A stretch of DNA of 12,765 bases, taken from positions 1 to 12,765 of the IMG/VR virus record IMGVR_UViG_2529292922_000012. One strand, 5' to 3'. The notes below the pieces were generated by a model. That model saw nothing but the letters and a program-made list of their open reading frames with translations. It was not told where the DNA came from and did no database searches. Below, piece after piece: positions 1 to 12,765 of this stretch. The position numbers and the translations under genes are program-made. Positions within the stretch are counted from its first letter, which is position 1, and every line of letters starts with the position of its first letter. Origin of the DNA: a virus. Its lineage: Duplodnaviria; Heunggongvirae; Uroviricota; Caudoviricetes.

Positions 1-274
1 GTCCCATTGACCGAATATTAAGATAATGACTTCCTGTTAACCACCCCTGTATGCTTAAGATGACCCTTCCCGCATCCACACCTCGCCCATCATCCCAACC
101 ACGGATAAACTCACCGCGTAAATCCGGTAATTTATTGGTGGGGTAGGCCTTTGCCAGTTTGGGATACATTTCAGAAGAAAATGCTGCACCATTGCATTTT
201 AGCCAGCCCGTTGGTGGTGTTTCTAAGGGCCACGGAACGGGCACACCAACAGGCAGTGCAGAGCCTTCCCCTAA
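1..274 (-). CDS. Tail-fibre C-terminal cassette, 5' part only (continues past the left window edge); no start codon of its own
   Basis: Minus-strand frame open from ~274 to position 1. Translation begins ...LGEGSALPVGVPVPWP...DDGRGVDAGR like the two downstream cassettes, then diverges. Antisense of track ORF 159..362. Confidence 0.6.
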
Positions 275-329
275 ACCAACGTTTTCATGCCGCCCTTACG
301 ATATAATTAAACGCAATGTTACGAGGACG
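69..329. repeat. Direct repeat copy A (~260 bp) spanning a cassette boundary
   Basis: Near-identical to 508..768 at a constant 439-bp offset, with scattered substitutions. Confidence 0.9.
266..291. other. Candidate invertase crossover site (cix/mix/hix-like), copy 1
   Basis: TTCCCCTAAACCAACGTTTTCATGCC. Shares the AAACC-AA-(C/G)GTTT core with recalled hixL (TTCTTGAAAACCAAGGTTTTTGATAA). Sits at the 5' end of a cassette. Confidence 0.5.
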
Positions 330-713
330 AATGGTTACATAATTAACCCCATCACCTCGTGAAGGCCCTGCAAATGAAAAACGGGAAAATCCTGGTTGGT
401 TAGAAACAATTTGGTCATAGTTATTGATTGAATGACCAGACCCAATGTCGAAATTACCTCCGTAATGAGAAAAACTTGTACCATCCTGCCCTGAAAGCAG
501 GGTACGTCCCGCATCAATCCCGCGCCCATCATCCCAGCCACGGATAAATTCACCGCGTAAATCCGGTAATTTATTGGTGGGGTAGGCTTTTGCCAGTTTG
601 GGATACATTTCAGAAGAAAATGCTGCACCATTGCATTTTAGCCAGCCCGTTGGTGGTGTTTCTAAGGGCCACGGAACGGGCACACCAACAGGCAGTGCAG
701 AGCCTTCCCCCAA
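285..713 (-). CDS. Tail-fibre C-terminal variable cassette (collar-like conserved N-part, variable tip, conserved ...RPRNIAFNYIVRAA end)
   Basis: Track ORF, 142 aa. N-terminal ~65 aa near-identical to cassette 724..1185. The 'M' is a TTG inside the crossover-like site; the frame stays open a few codons upstream, so it is probably a 3' gene segment fused to a constant 5' part after inversion. Confidence 0.75.
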   Translation of the reverse strand: MGEGSALPVGVPVPWPLETPPTGWLKCNGAAFSSEMYPKLAKAYPTNKLPDLRGEFIRGWDDGRGIDAGRTLLSGQDGTSFSHYGGNFDIGSGHSINNYDQIVSNQPGFSRFSFAGPSRGDGVNYVTIRPRNIAFNYIVRAA

Positions 714-768
714 ACCAACGTTTTTATGCCGCCCTTACGATATAATTAAAGGCAATATTACGAGGACG
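508..768. repeat. Direct repeat copy B (~260 bp)
   Basis: Aligns with 69..329 and, more divergently, with 982..1197. Confidence 0.9.
705..730. other. Candidate invertase crossover site, copy 2
   Basis: TTCCCCCAAACCAACGTTTTTATGCC. Imperfect dyad around a central AA, same orientation as copy 1. Confidence 0.55.
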
Positions 769-1185
769 GTTTTCATTAGCTGTTGGCACGACACGAGAGG
801 CGTCGAATCCAAGGTCATCGGTTTTGCCTATATCAGTTGTGTTATTCGGCATTCTCGCAGATCGTGTTCCTGCATCATAAAAAGCCCCTCTGATTGCATC
901 AAAAGACATGCCAATCCCGCCATCTGCGAACCCCTCAATATTTCTTATTGCATCCCCCTGTGAAGATAATAATTGTCGCCCGGCATCCACACCACGTCCG
1001 TCATCCCAGCCACGAATAAATTCACCGCGTAAATCCGGCAATTTATTAGTAGGGTAAGCCTTTGCCAGATTTGGGTACTTTTCAGAAGAAAATGCTGCTC
1101 CGTTACATTTCAGCCACCCCGTTGGCGGAGTGGCTGAGGGCCACGGAACAGGTACGCCAACGGGCAGTGCTGAGCCTTCCCCCAA
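724..1185 (-). CDS. Tail-fibre C-terminal variable cassette, proximal to the invertase gene
   Basis: Track ORF, 153 aa. Same conserved N-part (GEGSALPVGVPVPWP..TPPTGWLKCNGAAFSSE..AKAYPTNKLPDLRGEFIRGWDDGRG) and same C-terminal NIAFNYIVRAA as 285..713, with a different middle. Begins at TTG inside the crossover-like site. Confidence 0.75.
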   Translation of the reverse strand: MGEGSALPVGVPVPWPSATPPTGWLKCNGAAFSSEKYPNLAKAYPTNKLPDLRGEFIRGWDDGRGVDAGRQLLSSQGDAIRNIEGFADGGIGMSFDAIRGAFYDAGTRSARMPNNTTDIGKTDDLGFDASRVVPTANENRPRNIAFNYIVRAA

Positions 1186-1197
1186 ACCAACGTTTTA
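982..1197. repeat. Direct repeat copy C (~215 bp, more diverged; homology stops at the crossover-like site)
   Basis: Aligns with copies A and B from 'catcccagccacg' to 'caaaccaacgtttt', then diverges toward the invertase gene. Confidence 0.85.
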
Positions 1198-1203
1198 GTC
1201 TTA
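1178..1203. other. Candidate invertase crossover site, copy 3 (right boundary of the invertible region, ~55 bp upstream of the invertase start)
   Basis: TTCCCCCAAACCAACGTTTTAGTCTT. Repeat homology ends exactly here. Arrangement mirrors gixR-gin and cixR-cin. Confidence 0.55.
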
Positions 1204-1256
1204 ATCCCTACCTATACCAACGATGTATTTTTAACTAAACAAAGAGGTTGTTTTTC

Positions 1257-1829
1257 ATGCAAATTGGCTACATTCGTGTGTCAACAAATGACCAAAACAC
1301 AGATTTACAAAGAAATGCACTGAACTGCGCAGGATGTGAACTGATTTTTGAAGATAAAATAAGCGGAACAAAGTCAGCCAGACCAGGCTTGAAAAAGCTG
1401 CTCAGAACGTTATCAGAAGGAGATACGCTGGTTGTCTGGAAGCTGGATAGGCTTGGCAGAAGTATGAAACACCTTATCACGCTTATAGAGGAGTTGCGGG
1501 AAAAAGGTGTTAATTTCCGTAGTCTGACAGACAGTATTGACACATCAACACCCATGGGGCGTTTCTTTTTTCATGTCATGGGTGCTTTAGCAGAAATGGA
1601 ACGTGAATTAATTGTTGAGAGAACACTGGCCGGACTGGCAGCTGCACGCGAACAGGGACGCATTGGCGGACGTCGCCCGAAGTTGACAAAAGAACAACAT
1701 GAGCAAATAGCGAGGTTGATCGAAAATGGCTACAGCAGGAAACAGTTGGCAATTATTTACGATATCGGTGTATCGACGATTTATCGTTATCATCCTGTAG
1801 AGAAGCGCCAAACTCAATCTGAGCTGTAA
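1257..1829 (+). CDS. cin: Serine recombinase, Hin/Gin/Cin/Pin/Min-family DNA invertase
   Basis: MQIGYIRVSTNDQNTDLQ...VVWKLDRLGRSMKHL...SLTDSIDTSTPMGRFFFHVMGALAEMERELIVERT...GRIGGRRPKL plus C-terminal HTH: canonical invertase motifs with catalytic Ser in IGYIRVST. The track starts at an upstream TTG (1248); I chose the internal ATG, which gives the family-typical N-terminus. Symbol reflects P1-like context. Confidence 0.9.
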   Translation: MQIGYIRVSTNDQNTDLQRNALNCAGCELIFEDKISGTKSARPGLKKLLRTLSEGDTLVVWKLDRLGRSMKHLITLIEELREKGVNFRSLTDSIDTSTPMGRFFFHVMGALAEMERELIVERTLAGLAAAREQGRIGGRRPKLTKEQHEQIARLIENGYSRKQLAIIYDIGVSTIYRYHPVEKRQTQSEL

Positions 1830-1951
1830 TTCTAATGCCGCGTCGGTGTAATTTATCTTGATAGAATAGGTACATTTATCGCGCGGCACATCAATTCGAT
1901 GTATCTAGCGCCTGCTGACCGCTAATGAAAACTGTTCTCGAAATGTTGTCC

Positions 1952-1970
1952 CTAGTCCGAGACTAGGGTA
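1952..1970. repeat. Perfect 8-bp inverted repeat CCCTAGTC-cga-GACTAGGG in the intergenic region
   Basis: Seen directly. No U-tract on either side, so more likely a protein-binding dyad or RNA structure than an intrinsic terminator. Confidence 0.4.
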
Positions 1971-2264
1971 TCACCTCTGGAAAGCATACGCAGAACCTTT
2001 TTTAACCCAGGGTGCCCAGCTTTTTTGCTGCTCGCCTTATTCGCAAAAATTAGCTCACATCCTGCGCTTTCAAGTGCTTTTCACTGCATAGCTGTGTTTT
2101 GTTCATTTGTCTATATGCGTACATAGCCTATTAGCATATTTTCTGCCCACTATCGTTATTTATTGCAAGCTACAGGTTTTAATTAACAAAACCAGTGTGT
2201 GTGGAAATCACAAAGTGCATACCGTTCTCAAATGTTGTTCAACTTACTGTTGTATAGGTAAAAA

Positions 2265-2528
2265 ATGACATTTTATGTACATATCGTGATGTTATCCCTT
2301 CTTGGTGGGGTGTATTCGTATTTGAGTGGGCTATGTGAAAACCGTTACGAGTCTTCATGCAAGAAATTGCTGGCCGAATGTATTTCCGCCGTACTTGCTG
2401 GCTTTATTGGCATGTATCTCGCGGAATATAAGGACATGAATGAAAGCCTTCAGAGCTGCATGGTTCTTATTTTCAGCGCCAATAGCAGGCTTATTATTGA
2501 AGGTTCCAAAAGTCGGTTGAATAGGTAA
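2265..2528 (+). CDS. Hypothetical small protein with two hydrophobic segments
   Basis: Track ORF, 87 aa. Weak SD (AGGT ~9 nt upstream). Hydrophobic stretches IVMLSLLGGVYSYLSGL and ISAVLAGFIGMYLA. No recognised family. Confidence 0.3.
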   Translation: MTFYVHIVMLSLLGGVYSYLSGLCENRYESSCKKLLAECISAVLAGFIGMYLAEYKDMNESLQSCMVLIFSANSRLIIEGSKSRLNR

Positions 2529-2602
2529 GTCTCTTATGCAACATAACCGGTTGAGAAGTTACTTTGCATACCATTACCTCCTGACAACGTAGGAGGGAAC
2601 TT

Positions 2603-2932
2603 GTGCTTGACACACAGGAATTAGCTCCAGTTGCTATTGCGCTCCTGCTTTCAGTAATTGGTGGGATAGGCACGTTCCTGATGGATGTCCGAGACGGTCG
2701 CCAGTCTGGCAATTTGTTGGGATTGGTTACGGAGATCTTTGTTGCAGTGACAGCTGGCGCGGTGGCGTACCTATTGGGGCAACACGAGGGCTGGGAGTTA
2801 TCAATTACGTACTTAATGGTAACGATAGCCAGCAATAACGGTCATGAGGTGATTTCAGGGATGAAACGAGTGAATATCGATAGCATTCTGAATGTTCTTA
2901 CAAGTTTGGTGAAAAAGGGAGGCGGGAAATGA
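2603..2932 (+). CDS. lydA: Holin-like small membrane protein; LydA-like first gene of the lysis/dar operon
   Basis: Strong SD AGGAGGG 6 nt before GTG start. 109 aa with 2-3 predicted TM segments and a charged C-terminus (KKGGGK), which is holin architecture. Position after cin matches my recollection of P1. Confidence 0.55.
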   Translation: MLDTQELAPVAIALLLSVIGGIGTFLMDVRDGRQSGNLLGLVTEIFVAVTAGAVAYLLGQHEGWELSITYLMVTIASNNGHEVISGMKRVNIDSILNVLTSLVKKGGGK

Positions 2933-3372
2933 TTGGCTGGGGTGTATGCGTTCTTGCGTTAGCCTTAGCCGATCGCTATTTGCTAAAACGCAAGGACATC
3001 ACGCATTTAGAACTTGGTGATGTGGAAATTAAACCGGGTTTCATCCGGGTGCCGTTCAAATACCGGTCTAAATTCCCGTTTTTGCGCGGCGCAACGGTCA
3101 GATATTGGATCCGCGATGTTCAGAAGCCGACGACAGTGATTGAAGGCGAACAACGTTGTTTGACGTCGGCTGAACAGGGCGAAAACAGTGAATGGTTGTA
3201 CATACCCACTGAATATATGGGTAAAGGAGAGCGACTGTGGCATTTCAACGTCATGGTTACGCATGGCGACTCGTTCATTAACCCGTTGTATCGGATTTTC
3301 CCTGTTACTCAGCAAATCCGCAGAAGTTACGTAATAAATCTCGCACAGGATGTGTCAGATGACGAAAAATAA
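2929..3372 (+). CDS. lydB: LydB-like protein (putative holin antagonist) with N-terminal hydrophobic segment
   Basis: ATGA overlap with the preceding stop. SD GGGAGG. 147 aa. Named by synteny only. Confidence 0.45.
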   Translation: MIGWGVCVLALALADRYLLKRKDITHLELGDVEIKPGFIRVPFKYRSKFPFLRGATVRYWIRDVQKPTTVIEGEQRCLTSAEQGENSEWLYIPTEYMGKGERLWHFNVMVTHGDSFINPLYRIFPVTQQIRRSYVINLAQDVSDDEK

Positions 3373-3961
3373 GTATGCAACGGTCGATTTTGACCAGGTT
3401 AATGAAAAGGGGCTGAAATCCCTTATCGCGGCGATCAATAAAACCGGTGTTACGGTAATTGAGGTTGACTCCAGCAACCGCGCAACAACGAAAGATGGCG
3501 TTAAAGTTAAAACCGCAAAGCTGGTTCTTAACGACGGACAAATTCTTGCCATACAGGTAAACGATACTGGCGATATATCGTCTGTGAGGCTGAATGGAAA
3601 AGCTATTCCTAACGCTCAGTCGCCGGATATCAAGACGCTTGGTACCGTCATGGGGCAAGCGGCCCGCAAAAACTCCGCAAAATTCCAGAAATCACTGATC
3701 GCCAAAGCGAAACGTGTTGCCAATCCGGTAGACAAGAAACCGGCAGTAAAATCCAACTTTCAGCGCCTGCAAGAGGCAAAACAGCGGAATGCTCAGGTGG
3801 TTGCCGCTTATAAATCAGCGCAGAACTCGGTGTCTTTCAATCAACAGCAGATCACTGATTTGCGGGCGAAGCTGGATAAGGAGACAGGCCGACTCAATAA
3901 CGAAAAGGCCCGAAATGGCGAACTCAAACGCCGTCTTAAGCAACTGAAAGCAGGAAATTAA
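3359..3961 (+). CDS. hdf: Hdf-like protein (homologue of a DarA fragment), coiled-coil C-terminus
   Basis: Shares a segment with the next protein (..ARKNSAKFQKSLIAKAK.. versus ..AEKNSAKFQRAQKKKKA..), also visible at DNA level. Start ambiguous: 3350 or 3359; overlaps the lydB 3' end. Confidence 0.6.
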   Translation: MTKNKYATVDFDQVNEKGLKSLIAAINKTGVTVIEVDSSNRATTKDGVKVKTAKLVLNDGQILAIQVNDTGDISSVRLNGKAIPNAQSPDIKTLGTVMGQAARKNSAKFQKSLIAKAKRVANPVDKKPAVKSNFQRLQEAKQRNAQVVAAYKSAQNSVSFNQQQITDLRAKLDKETGRLNNEKARNGELKRRLKQLKAGN

Positions 3962-3962
3962 C

Positions 3963-5882
3963 ATGGAACAGTTCAATATCAATAAAGGGGTGACGATCAA
4001 GCCTGGGCTTGACGTGCTTCCCCCGCCAGTGACTGATGATGAATATCGCGCATTAATGGCCGGTGAGGACCGCTATCTGATGACGGAATCCAACACCCTG
4101 GAGGAAATCGAGGCTACGTTCTTCTATGACACGCCGATCCACTGGTGTGCTACGGATTTACTGGAGGCGATTAGTTCTACTCGTTTGCAGTTACACCGGA
4201 CCATGCAGGCATTTGTCCGGGCATTGAACCAGAAGCTGAATGGTACCGGAATCTCTGCGGGGAGTGATAAAACGGGGGATGTGGCCCAGAGCGGCGCGCG
4301 CGCGATCGGCGGTGCTGAAATTGGCCGGGCACGTAACGTTAACGGGCTGCCGGTCCTGCCAGCCATTATTCCGCTCAGTGATGGTCAGACTATCAGCATT
4401 CTGTTTCATAGCCCGACAGCGGAAAACCGGATCACCAATAGCGATACGCTGGTTGCTTTCCAGTTCTTACTGAATAAAAAAGACGTTACTCACACCGTTG
4501 CTCCGATGAGTGGACGTGATATGACGCTGGCGCAGGTCACCATGAAACTTGCCAACCTTGCAGAGAAAAACTCGGCAAAATTTCAGCGTGCGCAGAAGAA
4601 GAAAAAAGCCCTTGTTGATGAAATAACCCAACTACAGGCTGACAGTGACCAGAAAGAGGATGCCATGAGCGACCTCGTGGATCAGGTGGCAGCGGTAGAA
4701 GGGCAGAAGGTAGATCTGGAGCAGAAAATTAACGCTGTTGCATCGGAAGCGGATTCTCTTTATGAAGAGAATGAGCGTTTGCAGACGGAGATTGATCAGC
4801 TCAATCGCACTGGTGGGCGCGATACCATTGCTCCTGCGGGGATGACTGGTGGACACTCTCGCGCGATGACGGATCGCCTTGCCAGTATCAAAAATCGTAT
4901 GCATATGAACGGGGAAGTGACGCTCAGTAATGGTGCATCAATGAAGCAATTCATTGAGGACGGCGAAGGGTATATCCAGTTAACCGATTCGGATGGCAGC
5001 GTGTACATGATCAAGGCTAAATCCATACAGGGTGTGGACATGGCAGATGCGATCGGCAAGCTGTTTAAAGCCTATAAAGCGGGTAATGTATCGGAATACC
5101 TGGTCCAACCAGAAGAACATAAACCGGAAAACGTCGAACCTGAACCAGCGGAGGATACCGGTAGCTCTTCGCCTGAACCAGAAGTCTCTGTAGGTGCATA
5201 TCGATATGCCCTGCAAATGCGTCCGGCGGCCCCTGGCGCAATACCTGAAGGTAACAAAGCAATTCTGCCGCGCCCTGATGAAGGTGACCCGTATTATGAA
5301 TATGCACGCTACGGCATTGCTACTTACGATACCCCGCTTTCTGATCAGCAAATGAGTGAGTACGACCTGAAGTTATTGCCTCGCGAGGATTCTTTCGACT
5401 TCCTGGCGAAGACACTTACTAATGGTCCGTTTGGCAAATATGCACAAAAAGCTCTGGAGCTGGCCACCAGCTCACCAGACGAGTTCCGCGTAATGCTGAA
5501 AACTCAGTTTCAAAAAACTTTCCCCAATATTGCGTTTCCGGGGGGCGCTGGCACCGAGAAAATGGTGCAGAGCATGATCAATGCATTGCAGGCCGAAGTC
5601 GGTGAGATTACTCAGCCAGAACCTGCCCCGGCACAGCCTGATGAAACGGTTAGCGAAGCAGATGCAGAGGCTAATAAAGCCATTGAATATCTCAATAACG
5701 TGATGGATATGCAAAGCACTGACATGGCGGAGATCCGTAACGCCCGGGGTAATGTCCGGGAAGCGATTGCAGCCCTTCAGGCTGCCGGGCGTTTTGAGGA
5801 AAACGAAGAGCTGGTTAATGGCGCTGCTCGCCACTTGGCTGATCTGCTGGTAGCAATCCAGAAAGCGGGGGTAGCGGCATGA
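3963..5882 (+). CDS. darA: DarA-like anti-restriction / head-internal protein
   Basis: 639 aa. ATG 2 nt after the hdf stop, with SD AGGAA. Central coiled coil, Pro/Glu-rich linker. Named from size, position and paralogy with hdf. Confidence 0.6.
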   Translation: MEQFNINKGVTIKPGLDVLPPPVTDDEYRALMAGEDRYLMTESNTLEEIEATFFYDTPIHWCATDLLEAISSTRLQLHRTMQAFVRALNQKLNGTGISAGSDKTGDVAQSGARAIGGAEIGRARNVNGLPVLPAIIPLSDGQTISILFHSPTAENRITNSDTLVAFQFLLNKKDVTHTVAPMSGRDMTLAQVTMKLANLAEKNSAKFQRAQKKKKALVDEITQLQADSDQKEDAMSDLVDQVAAVEGQKVDLEQKINAVASEADSLYEENERLQTEIDQLNRTGGRDTIAPAGMTGGHSRAMTDRLASIKNRMHMNGEVTLSNGASMKQFIEDGEGYIQLTDSDGSVYMIKAKSIQGVDMADAIGKLFKAYKAGNVSEYLVQPEEHKPENVEPEPAEDTGSSSPEPEVSVGAYRYALQMRPAAPGAIPEGNKAILPRPDEGDPYYEYARYGIATYDTPLSDQQMSEYDLKLLPREDSFDFLAKTLTNGPFGKYAQKALELATSSPDEFRVMLKTQFQKTFPNIAFPGGAGTEKMVQSMINALQAEVGEITQPEPAPAQPDETVSEADAEANKAIEYLNNVMDMQSTDMAEIRNARGNVREAIAALQAAGRFEENEELVNGAARHLADLLVAIQKAGVAA

Positions 5883-6244
5883 CACTATCAGCTATTGAGT
5901 TAATGGATCTCAGCGATAAGTTGGATGCTTTGATGTCCAAAGCGGCTACCGCGAGTGGCATGGAGTTGCTGGATATCAGCGATGAAATTGACCAGATCAT
6001 GCAACAGATGGGGTACGGTGTGTCCGGCGGCAGTAGTGGCGAGGAAAAACAACCTTCGGTACATGATGGTGTGCCAAAACTGGTTGCTGATTTCCTGGCT
6101 GATAAATTCGTCGATCAGAGCACCGATGCATTTATCGGTACCTTGCAGGATTTGAGTCAATATGTTGGCACATACATCGACCTGGACCAGGTTAAACAGC
6201 ACACGGCGGCATGGATAGCCGCCAACATTAAAGAGGCAGCATAA
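5879..6244 (+). CDS. ddrA: DdrA-like small acidic protein
   Basis: ATGA overlap with the darA stop. 121 aa. Named by synteny. Confidence 0.5.
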   Translation: MTLSAIELMDLSDKLDALMSKAATASGMELLDISDEIDQIMQQMGYGVSGGSSGEEKQPSVHDGVPKLVADFLADKFVDQSTDAFIGTLQDLSQYVGTYIDLDQVKQHTAAWIAANIKEAA

Positions 6245-6256
6245 GGCGTAACAGGG

Positions 6257-9244
6257 ATGAGCTTAAGCGATCAGGTGGTAATGGCCACCAGCATAGAAAC
6301 GCTGATCGAGCTGCTAAAGAACCTGCCCGATTATGGGCGGGTTTCGTATGTGGTGACAGCGAAGGGAGACGAGGTAAAAACAGCGTTTGATATCGTCGAT
6401 GCCTCAGCTCTTTTGGTATCCAATACTCTGGATGGGAAAATTAATCCTGACTATCCCCAGGAACTTCAGCCGCGCGACCGGACCCGCGCATCCAGCCTTC
6501 TTCAGGTTAACCAGATATCCAAAGATTTGCGGCCTGCTCAGCTTACTGATTCCGGTTTATCCAGCCATGGTGCGCCGATAATTGGTGAGGACAATGCCGT
6601 TGAGTCTGGTAATGGACGGACCATGGGGATCATCAAAGCCTATCAGGACGGCAATGCGGATCGGTATCGTGAGTACCTGATTGATCATGCGACCGAATTC
6701 GGCATACGACCTGAAAAGGTTGAATCAATGACGGCTCCGGTACTGGTGCGCCGCCGGTTAACCAAGGTTGACCGCGTTCAGTTTGCCAAGGACTCAAATA
6801 TTTCTGATCTTCAGGAAATGGCAGCCAGTGAAAAGGCTTTTGTTGATGCCGACAGCATAACACCGGCGATGATGGCGCTTTTTAACCCGTCAGAAAGCGG
6901 AGATCTGCTTAGCCGCAGTAATGACGCGTTTATTCGCGGATTTATGACGCAAGTTGGTGCCACACAGGCGGCTGGCCTTGTAACGGAAGATGGGCGACCA
7001 ACGCGGCAACTTGTTGACCGTATACAAAACGCGATCTTTGCCAAGGCATATAAGGATGCGCGCCTGGTAAGGATGGTTGCAGAAGAACCTGATCCGGATA
7101 TGCGTAATGTTCTGACGGCGCTTAATGCGGCAGCCAATGATTTTGTCCAGATGCAGGCTTTATCAGGAGAAGCGCACAAGCAGGCTGTGACAACTATTGT
7201 TGATGGCATTGAGACAGCGGATAGCCTCGATAAAAAGGCGCTGGCGGCATTGAAAGATGCGGTAGACCTGGTAAGGCAATCGAAGGAGTCAGGCCAGCAT
7301 ATTACCGATGTTATTGCTCAGGGGGATATGTTCAGCGAAACGGCCCCGGAAGTGAAAGCACTCGCGTTGTTCATCGTCGCGAATAACCGTAGCGCGAAGC
7401 GTATGGCCACCGCCTTTAAGTTGATGGCTCAACGTATCAATGATGAGTTACAGCACCAGGGCCAGGCGCTGGGGGATATGTTTGGCGGTGGTGATGTGTC
7501 GTTACAGGATATCCTTCGCCAGGTGTCTCAGGAACTGGAAAACGAAGGCATGCAAGGGATATCCGGCGGTCTTTTCGAGTCCGTTTCCGGCGGTAGTTAC
7601 AATGGTGTTGCTCCATATACCAGTTTGCTATTACATCGGGCATCCGGCATCAAAGACATTATTCATCTGATCAGGCTGCTTTCCCGTACAGATCCCCAGG
7701 ATGAACAGCTTGTACAAGTGCTTGCGCATTTTGTTCGAATGCCTGTTGCCGACGTGAAAAAATGGTGCCGATTATTCGGTATCAGCAATTCGTTACTTCG
7801 CGGCTTGTTAAATCACGCATCCTCCCTTGGGCGCGATGGCTTTGACGAGATAGCGCAGGCGATAAAAAACGGAGATATGCCACCAGCTATTGACTGGTTT
7901 TCCATTCGCCCAACCAGGGTGAAAGCATTCCTTAGCGCGGCGCATTCGGCATCACCATTGGCAGAAATGGTTCAGAGGTTGTCGCTCATATTCACAGACC
8001 ATACCGCGTTGGGTGATCTGACTCTGGACGAGATGAAAGAAGCCTCCATTCAGTGGGCCGATCAACAAAATGAGGTTAACTCTGACTTCTTGCCAGCATT
8101 CAGGAAGGCCGTTAGTAAAGCGGATGATGCCCGTGGAATTCTGAGGGCATTTAAGGCATTGCAAAGTCAGGTTAATAAACATGTCGGTGATATCGATGGG
8201 GTAACGGCGGAAGGCAGGGATATCCTTAAAGAGCACGGCATAACGCCAGAGTTTATTGATGAGATCAGGACTGATATGCAGCGTGAGGTCGTATCGTCCC
8301 TGCAAATCGTAGCCAGAGCGTTGGCGGATGCTAATCCGAAGAGTGCGGCCATTGTTAACCGTGTTATTGGTGATATTGAAGCATCGGAGGGCATGGGGGC
8401 GCTGAAACTCTTCCTTTCGCGAGCGTTTAATCCTAACGGCAATATTCTCCCCGGCATTATTGGTGAGGCTAAAAAGTATGTCAGCGAAGAAGAACTTGAG
8501 CAGCTTGACCAACTACTTAAGCGATTCTCATATAACCCGCAGACACGCTGGCAAATGAATCAGCGAAGTATGGGTTCGGTCCACGAGAAAGTGTTATCTG
8601 CCATGAACAGTGCGATCGCAAACTCATCCGTATCTGAAGAAAAAGCTCTTGAGTGGGCCGACTCTTTTATCACGGAAGAAGTGGAAGAAGCCCGCGCTGG
8701 ACAGAATGGTGGGATAGACCTGCGCAAGGAACTTGCTGATATTTATCGCCTGACCGGCGGGAAAATATCGACATTATCAAAGGTAGTTCACCACCAGGGA
8801 AGGGCATATGCAAATCTTAATGGTGTTGTTGCTGTCAATTTGAACGATGAAAATGCAAGTGCACTGTGGCACGAGCTGGGTCATCATCTTGAGTACAGTA
8901 ACCCTGGTTTGTTAGAGAAAGCCCGGTCATTCCTGAAGGCCAATGTTGAAGGGGATAAGCCATCTTTCGTCAATATCGGTGGGCGTGGCAAGCCTGAATG
9001 GTGCTTCAGATCTCGATTGAGTAATATTTATATGGCGAAGGTATACCCGCCAGCCTCAGTAAGTAACACCGGGAAAATTCGGCAGAAATCACCGACTATT
9101 TCCAAAACGTCAGCAACGGAAGTATTCTCTATGGCTCTTCAGTTGTATCATGACAAAGAGGCCGCTGCCGCATCACTGATGAATGGTGACGGATTGCTGG
9201 AACTGTTATTAGGTGTGGCAAAGGAGCTAAATAATGCAGATTAA
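6257..9244 (+). CDS. ddrB: DdrB-like large protein: ParB/Srx-like N-terminal signature plus C-terminal HExxH (zincin-like) motif
   Basis: 995 aa. ELQPRDR...GAPIIGEDNAVESGNGRTMGI resembles ParB boxes (QPR / GxxR). HELGHH at aa 872-877 (nt 8870-8887). Long helical middle. Confidence 0.6.
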   Translation: MSLSDQVVMATSIETLIELLKNLPDYGRVSYVVTAKGDEVKTAFDIVDASALLVSNTLDGKINPDYPQELQPRDRTRASSLLQVNQISKDLRPAQLTDSGLSSHGAPIIGEDNAVESGNGRTMGIIKAYQDGNADRYREYLIDHATEFGIRPEKVESMTAPVLVRRRLTKVDRVQFAKDSNISDLQEMAASEKAFVDADSITPAMMALFNPSESGDLLSRSNDAFIRGFMTQVGATQAAGLVTEDGRPTRQLVDRIQNAIFAKAYKDARLVRMVAEEPDPDMRNVLTALNAAANDFVQMQALSGEAHKQAVTTIVDGIETADSLDKKALAALKDAVDLVRQSKESGQHITDVIAQGDMFSETAPEVKALALFIVANNRSAKRMATAFKLMAQRINDELQHQGQALGDMFGGGDVSLQDILRQVSQELENEGMQGISGGLFESVSGGSYNGVAPYTSLLLHRASGIKDIIHLIRLLSRTDPQDEQLVQVLAHFVRMPVADVKKWCRLFGISNSLLRGLLNHASSLGRDGFDEIAQAIKNGDMPPAIDWFSIRPTRVKAFLSAAHSASPLAEMVQRLSLIFTDHTALGDLTLDEMKEASIQWADQQNEVNSDFLPAFRKAVSKADDARGILRAFKALQSQVNKHVGDIDGVTAEGRDILKEHGITPEFIDEIRTDMQREVVSSLQIVARALADANPKSAAIVNRVIGDIEASEGMGALKLFLSRAFNPNGNILPGIIGEAKKYVSEEELEQLDQLLKRFSYNPQTRWQMNQRSMGSVHEKVLSAMNSAIANSSVSEEKALEWADSFITEEVEEARAGQNGGIDLRKELADIYRLTGGKISTLSKVVHHQGRAYANLNGVVAVNLNDENASALWHELGHHLEYSNPGLLEKARSFLKANVEGDKPSFVNIGGRGKPEWCFRSRLSNIYMAKVYPPASVSNTGKIRQKSPTISKTSATEVFSMALQLYHDKEAAAASLMNGDGLLELLLGVAKELNNAD

Positions 9245-9545
9245 AATCGCAGCGCCATTAGGCGGAGATGCCATTATCGAATTTGATGATAATGAAGAAG
9301 TTTCCGGGCGTTTAAGCATTATCTCCGGTGACATTACCGAGGACATGATCGCTGAAGCCATAGCTGGGGCAAATCCCAATAGCTATATGGGATTCGTTAA
9401 CACCCTTGATGCTCCCGCAAGTGATGTTCTCCGAACGCTGCATCTTTACGCTGGCTGGTTTGTTGATTGGCCAGCAGTAGATGGTGGCGATGAGGACGAC
9501 GACGACGATGATTTTGGTGATCATGTAGACCAGATCGTATATTGA
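9234..9545 (+). CDS. Small protein with highly acidic C-terminus, translationally coupled to ddrB
   Basis: ATG overlaps the ddrB 3' end. SD AAGGAG 7 nt upstream. 103 aa ending DGGDEDDDDDDFGDHVDQIVY. Last gene before the terminator. Confidence 0.55.
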   Translation: MQIKIAAPLGGDAIIEFDDNEEVSGRLSIISGDITEDMIAEAIAGANPNSYMGFVNTLDAPASDVLRTLHLYAGWFVDWPAVDGGDEDDDDDDFGDHVDQIVY

Positions 9546-9574
9546 AGAAATCCCGCCAATTGGCGGGATTTTTA
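9546..9574. terminator. Bidirectional rho-independent terminator between convergent genes
   Basis: AAATCCCGCC-aatt-GGCGGGATTT 10-bp GC-rich stem followed by a T-run on the + strand and ATTTCTTC on the - strand. Lies exactly between the stops at 9545 and 9577. Confidence 0.7.
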
Positions 9575-9576
9575 CC

Positions 9577-10663
9577 TCACGAGAAACTCTTTTCTGATGT
9601 CAGCCAACAGTGCTCGTGCATATCTCTTGGTGGTTTTTCGACAAATGCCTCTTCAGCCACATCCTGCCAGGGGATTTGTTTAGCCCATTCAGTTATAGCG
9701 TTATGGTTTGCCGAGAATAACGGTATTGTATAGGCCTTCAGCCAGTCTAATGTGCTGGAGTTGTGTTTTTGAGCGTGATGTTTCGCATGGTGTTTGGCGA
9801 TCACGATCGTAGGCACTACCCATTTACTACCGTCAGTCATTGTGAAGTGCATATTACGGGGAACAGATGACTTTTCCATCAACTCCCGAATCCCGGGGAA
9901 TTTCCCCAAGATCAATCGGCGATATTCATCGCTATTGCGTCCACCAAACTCTTTGGCTTTGAATTCAAGATATGCTTCAGAAACGAGAGGTGAATCCTCT
10001 GTGTTTAGAGTTATCGCCGTGAAAAAACCAGCAGGATTGTTTTTACTATGGGCCAACCGGTGATGCGAATCATAAAAGTACCCTTTCTCGCGTTCCGATG
10101 GTTTCGACAGCAACAGCAGGCGCGAGTCATAATTGGTTAAATTGCCAGTTATCACTGCATGAGCGCGATCGCTGATTTCCGCCGAGTTAATAACGATGAA
10201 AAGATCGTGCGGTCCAGTAAAACCAGCCAGAGACTCTTCGTTATTCAGACAATAGGTTATATAGACGCATCCCCATGTTTCACTGATATGCACCAACCCT
10301 TTGTCAGGGTGTATTCTGAAATAATTGCCAAGAAAAGGGTGTTTTTGGGTAACTCGCTCCCAATAACGGAACATATAGTCAATTATTGTTTTTCGACTAT
10401 CGTTAATCGCAGGAGAAACAACCACTGTACGGGAACACGAATACAGTATTGTTTGCAGGATGCTAATCACTGCCACAATAGAGGTTTCCCCAATACCATG
10501 TGGTGTGGTGGCAGTGACTTTGGCTCCGGTGTTCTTTATCGCGTTAATAATTTTTGCTTGATGAGGTGTTAACTCAATATCAAGCAACTCTTTTGCTGCC
10601 AGTTCCCAATTGTCTTTATACCGTTCTATCAGTGCTAACCAGGCAGATTCATTCTGTATACGA

Positions 10664-10671
<8 letters not shown>
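9577..10671 (-). CDS. Terminase-large-subunit-like P-loop ATPase-domain protein with degenerate Walker A/B; no nuclease domain apparent
   Basis: Track ORF, 364 aa, GTG start with SD GAGGTGG. Motif order PHQ...TTPHGIGETS...DLFIVINSAE...LLLLSKPSE resembles the adenine-Q / Walker A / Walker B / C-motif layout of terminase ATPases as I recall it. His-rich patch AKHHAKHHAQKH. Confidence 0.5.
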
Positions 10672-12764
<2,093 letters not shown>

Positions 12765-12765
12765 G

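Follow-up and report, generated by a model that had tools for sequence, protein, structure and literature searches.

Which kind of inversion system lies behind a row of tail-fibre 3' ends next to a DNA invertase: a two-ended switch such as those of P1 (Cin) and Mu (Gin), or a system with several alternative ends? The question arises at the left end of a 12,765-nucleotide stretch of DNA from a tailed virus (IMG/VR record IMGVR_UViG_2529292922_000012, positions 1 to 12,765), the whole of which is called the window in the following. An earlier note, made from the sequence alone, had proposed a multiple inversion region of the Min type described for plasmid p15B. The Min system of p15B from E. coli 15T-, studied by Sandmeier, Iida and Arber in 1990–1992, reportedly comprises six mix sites within 3.5 kb and permits 240 isomers.

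With a probability of about 90%, we conclude that window 1–1203 and the gene at 1257–1829 together form the invertase-proximal end of a p15B-type Min multiple inversion region on a P1-like (IncY) phage-plasmid. The feature is the already described Min system, known since 1990, and involves no new mechanism. The only mildly new aspects are how large and diverse the cassette library is in present-day P1-like phage-plasmids, and the rules that its arrangement follows.

Results

Three tail-fibre cassettes with a common head and tail

At least three tail-fibre 3' cassettes had been claimed to lie in tandem on the minus strand, and this was borne out. Cassette A (1194–727, 156 aa, stop at 724–726) adjoins the invertase, followed by cassette B (722–288, 145 aa, stop at 285–287) and cassette C (283–2), which is cut by the window start after 94 of about 155 codons. 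All three are silent minus-strand cassettes and match the Pfam Collar family PF07484 (E about 1e-15, 55–57 bits against a cut-off of 24; E = 2e-15 for cassette C). The conserved collar-like start, previously put at about 65 aa, proved to be a head of 72 aa that is 93–99% identical between the cassettes (aa 1–72). Their variable middles are merely 20–26% identical, while the final 14 aa, RPRNIAFNYIVRAA, are identical in the cassettes.

The reading frame 5' of each crossover site is open for four codons only. Neither an ATG nor a Shine-Dalgarno sequence is present at any cassette start, and the sole 'start' is an in-frame TTG inside the site itself (GGT TTG GGG), which ORF callers and RefSeq annotation adopt mechanically. 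The statement that the cassettes have no start of their own holds for ATG and Shine-Dalgarno; the TTG qualifies it. In a promoter scan, promoter-like matches were not commoner than in shuffled sequences and none was located upstream of any cassette.

Cassettes A and B are open and their variable parts are 100% identical to those of intact family members; cassette C shows 95% identity to family C across the part present. At its cut end, nt 1–22 of the window, it carries a 1-nt insertion and one substitution in comparison to four relatives. The insertion may be a real frameshift or an error at the contig end.

Comparison with solved structures gave a match of cassette A to the short tail fibre PDB 9cuy (E = 2e-31, aa 9–154) and to the tip of T4 gp37, 2xgf (E = 8e-16), the alignment with the latter covering both the Collar head and the C-terminal NIAFNYIVR; a cassette also matched the gp12 collar, 1OCY, at E = 2e-4. 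Given this resemblance of the cassette product to solved fibre tips, the head and the tail, both conserved, probably fold together as a collar, with the variable middle as the receptor-binding part. At the level of sequence, the likeness to the gp37 tip (2XGF), the gp12 collar (1OCY) and 9CUY consists of the Collar head and the (N)IAFNYIVR strand, and extends to the principle of a collar that is conserved and carries a variable insert for receptor binding. The three known proteins, however, are encoded by fixed single genes, whereas the cassettes appear exchangeable.

Crossover sites and direct repeats

Three direct repeats of 262 nt are located at 68–329, 507–768 and 979–1240, the second being 96% and the third 76% identical to the first. 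Their separation of the cassettes as direct repeats of about 260 bp had been noted before. The repeats are real, but we rejected the idea that they are spacers between cassettes: each is made up of one cassette's conserved 3' tail, the 26-bp site and the conserved Collar head of the next cassette.

Within the repeats the crossover-like sequence TTCCCCnAAACCAACGTTTTnATG occurs three times, at 266–289, 705–728 and 1177–1200, always on the plus strand and in the same orientation, while 0.00 matches are expected by chance (200 shuffles). Repeat identities and shuffle counts led us to reject a chance origin of repeats and sites. Extended to 26 bp, the outermost plus-strand site (site 1, 1177–1202, central AA at 1189–1190) leads cassette A and has the outer half AAGACTAAAACG on the coding strand, which is part of the fixed flank. 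Site 2 (plus strand, 705–730, central AA at 717–718) stands at the head of cassette B, and the stop codon of cassette A falls within its outer half; site 3 (plus strand, 266–291, central AA at 278–279) leads cassette C and holds the stop codon of cassette B in its outer half. All three lie inside tail-fibre coding sequence and have the central AA/TT and the inner half GGTTTrGGGGAA in common. These 14 nt of inner half plus centre are almost invariant and match P1 cix; cixL and cixR of P1 share with the window sites the central TT and the inner half GGTTTxxGxGAA. A pattern scan of both strands detected no inverted copy of the crossover site anywhere in the 12.8-kb window. The order in the window is C, B and A, all pointing leftward, and then the invertase. 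The window includes neither the gene's constant part nor any inverted site, so that only half of the switch is visible.

The invertase gene, an enhancer-like block and a cin remnant

The adjoining Hin-family invertase was confirmed. Transcription of the plus-strand gene at 1257–1829 proceeds away from the cassettes, and its product is a Min-type serine DNA invertase of 190 aa with the Resolvase (E = 2e-51) and HTH_7 domains. Ser9, the catalytic serine, sits in YIRVSTNDQ, and the protein is 74% identical to P1 Cin. It is full length, and its exact sequence corresponds to the UniRef entry Q05517_ECOLX 'DNA-invertase' and recurs across at least 1000 contigs.

The 5' end of the gene contains a presumed recombinational (Fis-dependent) enhancer at 1275–1346 on the plus strand, assigned by homology to the enhancer of P1 cin. 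In the P1 GenBank record the cin enhancer is annotated at 31678–31749, and window 1281–1351 (71 nt) is 83% identical, ungapped, to a P1 block overlapping it. A second enhancer-like copy is found at 2043–2113, within a 5' fragment of a P1-type cin gene on the minus strand (1961–2137, 59 codons). This fragment contains two in-frame stops and is therefore a pseudogene, psi-cin.

The P1 backbone and collinearity with p15B min

The remaining window is phage P1 backbone with the genes lydC/A/B, hdf, darA, ddrA, ddrB and hxr. Profile searches recognized two LydA-family holins (lydC and lydA, 2265–2528 and 2603–2932), LydB (2929–3372), a DarA_N protein at the hdf position (3350–3961), DarA (3963–5882) and DdrB (6257–9244); the names ddrA and hxr were transferred from the annotation of relatives. 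Similarity to the relatives stops at 10810, and an istA/istB pair of the IS21 family is located at 10897–12698. Aligned to P1, window 1961–3000 matches in reverse orientation with 88% identity, spanning the first 177 nt of cin, the cin upstream region, lydC and lydA. The closest matches are non-mobilizable IncY plasmids (about 93–100 kb) from E. coli, Klebsiella and Salmonella, together with Punavirus phage records.

p15B (X62121) was compared by means of the coordinates quoted in the P1 GenBank notes, not by direct alignment. Throughout, the p15B blocks sit in the window at the p15B coordinate minus 5182, and their identities to P1 equal those noted there. p15B 6463–6533 corresponds to window 1281–1351 (83% to P1, no gaps), 7147–7408 to 1965–2227, 7483–7638 to 2301–2454 (84% to P1) and 7728–8294 to 2546–3112 (99.8% to P1). 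The enhancer block, psi-cin, lydC and lydA hence agree in position at a constant offset. Shared with p15B Min are also the P1-like backbone, an invertase pointing away from the cassettes with psi-cin behind it, and multiple 26-bp sites in the tail-fibre gene. Window 1–2000 moreover shows a 99.2% match to plasmid pMCR_SCKP-LL83, for which a 5-kb invertible segment with 99% identity to the p15B min region over 92% coverage has been described (PMC5786510).

Cassette arrays in twelve relatives

We retrieved the region from twelve related plasmids and phages and mapped the sites and the cassette families, eleven in number (A–K), in each of them. The gene order is R, tail-fibre gene S, cassette array and invertase in 12/12. 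The N-terminus of S, which is the constant part, is 94% identical to P1 S over the first 252 aa. In nine relatives this part runs intact into an inverted site, and in the other three the junction is frameshifted or unresolved; when intact, the junction reads cttgatTACC, followed by the central TT and GGTTTrGGGGAA. Between R/S and the invertase the arrays contain 5–10 sites, and the left sites are inverted relative to the right sites in all relatives resolved.

The twelve relatives show twelve different orders and orientations of cassettes, yet all arrangements follow the same rule: the cassettes read towards a central point, rightward on its left and leftward on its right. The central segment always consists of I paired with C+tfa, tail to tail, in either orientation. 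The tail-fibre assembly gene (tfa) follows cassette C, the sole family that has one. The outer half-sites are fixed to the flanks, TTCTTGATTACC on the Sc side and AAGACTAAAACG on the invertase side, while the cassettes behind them vary. For each of the families B, D, E, H and K there is one plasmid in which the cassette is joined to the constant part, and in others it is silent, on one strand or the other; cassette B, for instance, is fused in p1337c and silent, on either strand, in other relatives. Beside the invertase most relatives have cassette A, for which no fusion with the constant part was observed; in pSX12-6 its place is taken by B. Such differences are the pattern expected from repeated site-specific inversions, each between one left and one right site, and serve as a surrogate for the long-read isomers proposed as a check in the earlier note.

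Two further features vary among the relatives. The heads occur as haplotypes (for example, PSAT...SEKYPNLAKV and PLET...SEMYPKLAKA) that pair with different variable parts in different plasmids, and the number of cassettes changes, with cassette B being duplicated in p266917_2_02. Because inversion at the sites can yield neither head reassortment nor a change in copy number, the head mosaics and the varying cassette number suggest that the 200-bp heads undergo homologous exchange or gene conversion.

The arrangement of the window itself is reflected in parts. B and A are adjacent beside the invertase in p266917_2_02 and in one other relative (L007), and cassette C lies on the invertase side in six mapped relatives. 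The C-B junction (36 nt + N269 + 36 nt) was present in no record in exact-pattern scans of genome_contigs, metagenome_contigs and viral_contigs, and the contiguous order C-B-A-invertase was found in none of the top-ranked BLAST matches in PLSDB and 5,426 complete E. coli genomes. CP088415 was considered as a one-piece match to window 1–2000 and rejected, its order being C-D-A with many frameshifts.

Discussion

A multiple inversion region and not a two-ended segment

The Min reading of the earlier note, as opposed to a Cin/Gin segment, is upheld by several lines of evidence: the presence of more than two sites, cassettes unlike those of P1, collinearity with p15B and the arrays of the relatives. 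The P1 Cin and Mu Gin systems resemble the locus in their purpose, a switch of host range, and in the kind of recombinase, the serine invertase of the window being 74% identical to Cin. In P1 and Mu, in contrast, two sites serve two alternative Sv+U ends, whereas the window contains three sites on one side alone. A comparison of the cassettes with the P1 tail-fibre segments had been suggested and was run by tblastn; no significant similarity to Sv, Sv', U or U' was obtained (best E = 0.28). As the cassettes show no significant similarity to these segments, the locus is assigned to the p15B/Min type and not to the Cin type. Further differences from P1 are that the window cassettes are short Collar-type tips unrelated to Sv/Sv' and that the invertase is oriented opposite to cin. 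Unlike in P1 and Mu, a tfa gene accompanies only one cassette family, C, in the Min arrays. A simple two-ended Cin/Gin segment was accordingly rejected, given three direct sites within 1.2 kb and cassettes unlike the P1 C-segment.

Combinatorial inversion with several sites and alternative 3' ends of one adhesin or fibre gene is also found in the shufflon of R64 (Rci) and in the Rin shufflon of bifidobacterial prophages (PMC6109161). R64 employs pilV and a tyrosine recombinase, Rci, which acts on sfx sites, in contrast to the serine invertase found here; the shufflons are analogues rather than relatives. An R64-type tyrosine-recombinase shufflon was rejected for the window, in which the recombinase is a serine resolvase/invertase.

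Proposed mechanism of the switch

A single late-expressed tail-fibre gene, S, would be located left of the window, its constant part ending at a 26-bp site. The cassettes downstream of S would be promoterless, devoid of an ATG start and each headed by a 26-bp site of the same family (coding-strand central TT, GGTTTrGGGGAA), pointing rightward on the left of the central segment and leftward on its right. C, B and A of the window would constitute the left-pointing set. Since C with tfa is always central in the relatives, the invertase side of this molecule probably holds exactly three cassettes rather than at least three. From the same arrays we predict that, beyond the left edge of the window, C is completed and then succeeded by the 612-nt tfa and a convergent I-type cassette.

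The Min invertase would bind the 26-bp sites and pair one left site with one inverted site on the right, presumably aided by an enhancer within its own 5' coding region and by host Fis, whose participation is assumed from the Hin/Gin/Cin family. The DNA between the paired sites would then be inverted, and successive inversions would permute the cassettes so that another one becomes the in-frame continuation of the constant part. Each cassette would supply a gp37/gp12-like collar, formed by the 72-aa head and the 14-aa tail, plus a variable receptor-binding tip, and the switch would change adsorption specificity, and hence host range, within a clonal phage population. Cassette anatomy, family assignment, collinearity with p15B and natural isomers among the relatives are direct results of the analysis; activity in the molecule represented by the window, the role of enhancer and Fis, and the effect on host range are inferred. 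The Min mechanism has been described in the literature (PMC6109161), and the expected host-range effect would follow from what is reported there for Min, Cin and Gin.

Alternative explanations

The window stops inside cassette C and leaves the left half of the array out of view, so one has to consider that the locus is a frozen relic, in which the constant part, the inverted sites or the activity of the invertase have been lost and the three cassettes are silent, non-switching DNA. In some P1-like plasmids the invertase and C-segment regions have been described as truncated or rearranged (PMC6906374), nt 1–22 contain a possible frameshift, and the IS21-family element at the right end indicates disruption of the backbone elsewhere. 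However, cassettes A and B are open, with variable parts 100% identical to those of intact family members, the sites are intact, and the full-length invertase is of an allele that is widespread. The left part is present in all 12 matching relatives, with an intact constant-part junction in nine. We consider a relic unlikely. The end of the contig within a repeated region, together with the deviation of the first 22 nt from the relatives and the failure of three pattern scans to find the order C-B-A elsewhere, also permits an assembly artefact, the tandem cassettes having arisen from collapsed or chimeric repeats at the contig end. This would be most surprising, as the B-A adjacency beside the invertase recurs in p266917_2_02 and L007, and C is on the invertase side in six mapped relatives. 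The variable parts are unique sequence and the bridging repeats are only about 260 nt long, and with some ten shuffling cassettes a novel order is to be expected.

A different driver is conceivable as well. RecA-dependent homologous recombination between the heads or repeats of 200–260 bp, instead of the invertase acting at the 26-bp sites, could be the main source of rearrangement. The heads are 93–99% identical across about 200 bp and their haplotypes (PSAT.../PLET..., LAKA/LAKV) reassort against the variable parts among the relatives; 5–10 cassettes per array and the duplication of B in p266917_2_02 fit unequal exchange between direct repeats. An intact dedicated invertase, though, lies beside the array in every relative, and the 14 nt of inner half plus centre are almost invariant and match P1 cix. 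The mobile DNA is bounded by the fixed outer half-sites, and all arrangements keep the nested left/right orientation rule that is expected from inversion only. In addition, Min-mediated inversion in p15B was reportedly demonstrated experimentally by Sandmeier et al. in 1990. As the main driver, homologous recombination is thus very unlikely; as a secondary process it probably contributes the change in copy number and the head mosaics.

An expanded cassette library

The preferred reading, a Min region read from its invertase side, leaves room for a more specific and more tentative proposal, to which we give slightly less than even odds. Present-day P1-like Min arrays may be substantially larger and more fluid than the reportedly six-site array of p15B, and the C-B-A order of the window may be an unrecorded isomer of an expanded host-range library with up to 10 sites and at least 11 cassette families, in which I and C+tfa are always central, A is almost always parked by the invertase and the heads are subject to gene conversion. 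Compared with p15B, which reportedly has six sites in 3.5 kb, the relatives of the window carry 5–10 sites and 11 cassette families, and the C-B-A order is matched by no record searched. A limited literature search retrieved no paper describing expanded Min arrays. If true, this reading extends a known system and adds no new mechanism.

For P1-like phage-plasmids, the Min region explains why short-read assemblies break at this place, and it also explains the strings of small 'phage tail protein' genes in RefSeq, which are silent 3' cassettes. Resistance genes, mcr-1 and blaCTX-M among them, are frequent on P1-like elements. To judge from the array, these elements would possess a broad set of receptor-binding tips among which they can switch, a point of relevance to their host range and to transduction.

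Cassette arrangement in the relatives

In the twelve related plasmids and phages with a mapped array (L001-L013), the centre is always occupied by a pair consisting of a family I cassette and a family C cassette with its tail-fibre assembly gene (tfa), in either orientation. Among the cassette families of these arrays, only family C carries tfa at its 3' side. Cassette A (727-1194) adjoins the invertase gene in the window and likewise in 10 of the 12 relatives; neither its fusion to the constant 5' part of the tail-fibre gene nor a left-sided position was seen in this sample. The outermost crossover site (1177-1202) is divergent in its outer half and may be seldom used.

The conserved 72-aa head of the cassettes occurs in two or three haplotypes, which are paired with differing variable parts across the plasmids: on families C and E, for example, either head haplotype is found. 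This reassortment of heads against variable parts implies homologous exchange or gene conversion between cassettes.

Annotation, frameshifts and window ends

Intact silent cassettes are annotated in RefSeq as independent 'phage tail protein' genes whose start is a TTG inside the crossover site. Many cassettes of L003, L005, L009, L011 and L012 are frameshifted and labeled as pseudogenes there; these frameshifts look like homopolymer errors of long-read assemblies rather than real decay. At the left edge of the window, nt 1-22 differ from four relatives: there is an extra T near position 7, and position 21 is A where the relatives have T. The last visible codons of cassette C (2-283) are thereby put out of frame, which reflects either a real frameshift or an error at the contig end.

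At the right side similarity to P1-like plasmids ends at 10810, and the segment beyond (10811-12765) holds an IS21-family element with istA (10897-11919, rve and HTH domains) and istB (11916-12698, IstB_IS21, E 8e-112). The element has matches in plasmids by the thousands, and Yersinia is the source of many of these, which suggests that it is IS100-like. The window thus runs from a repeat on its left to an IS on its right, boundaries that short-read contigs typically have. A 364-aa ORF without a Pfam match (9577-10671, minus strand) separates hxr from the IS element; it is conserved in the relatives and annotated as hypothetical there.

Sequences behind the invertase gene

Behind the active invertase gene (1257-1829) and in opposite orientation to it we found psi-cin (1961-2137, minus strand), a dead remnant of a P1-type cin gene that covers 59 codons of its 5' part and contains two in-frame stops. 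Between the invertase stop codon and psi-cin, a 36-nt stretch (1913-1948, plus strand) shows 81% complementarity to positions 753-788 at the 3' end of cassette A; its translation reads LTANENCSRNV as compared to PTANENRPRNI for the cassette. By this resemblance the stretch looks like a fossil cassette end in reverse orientation, lying outside of today's invertible region. Within psi-cin the enhancer-like block occurs a second time (2043-2113, 86% identical to P1), and the fragment is found in all twelve relatives. The retention of a dead cin fragment with a second enhancer-like copy at this position suggests that the Cin module of a P1-like ancestor was replaced by the Min module.
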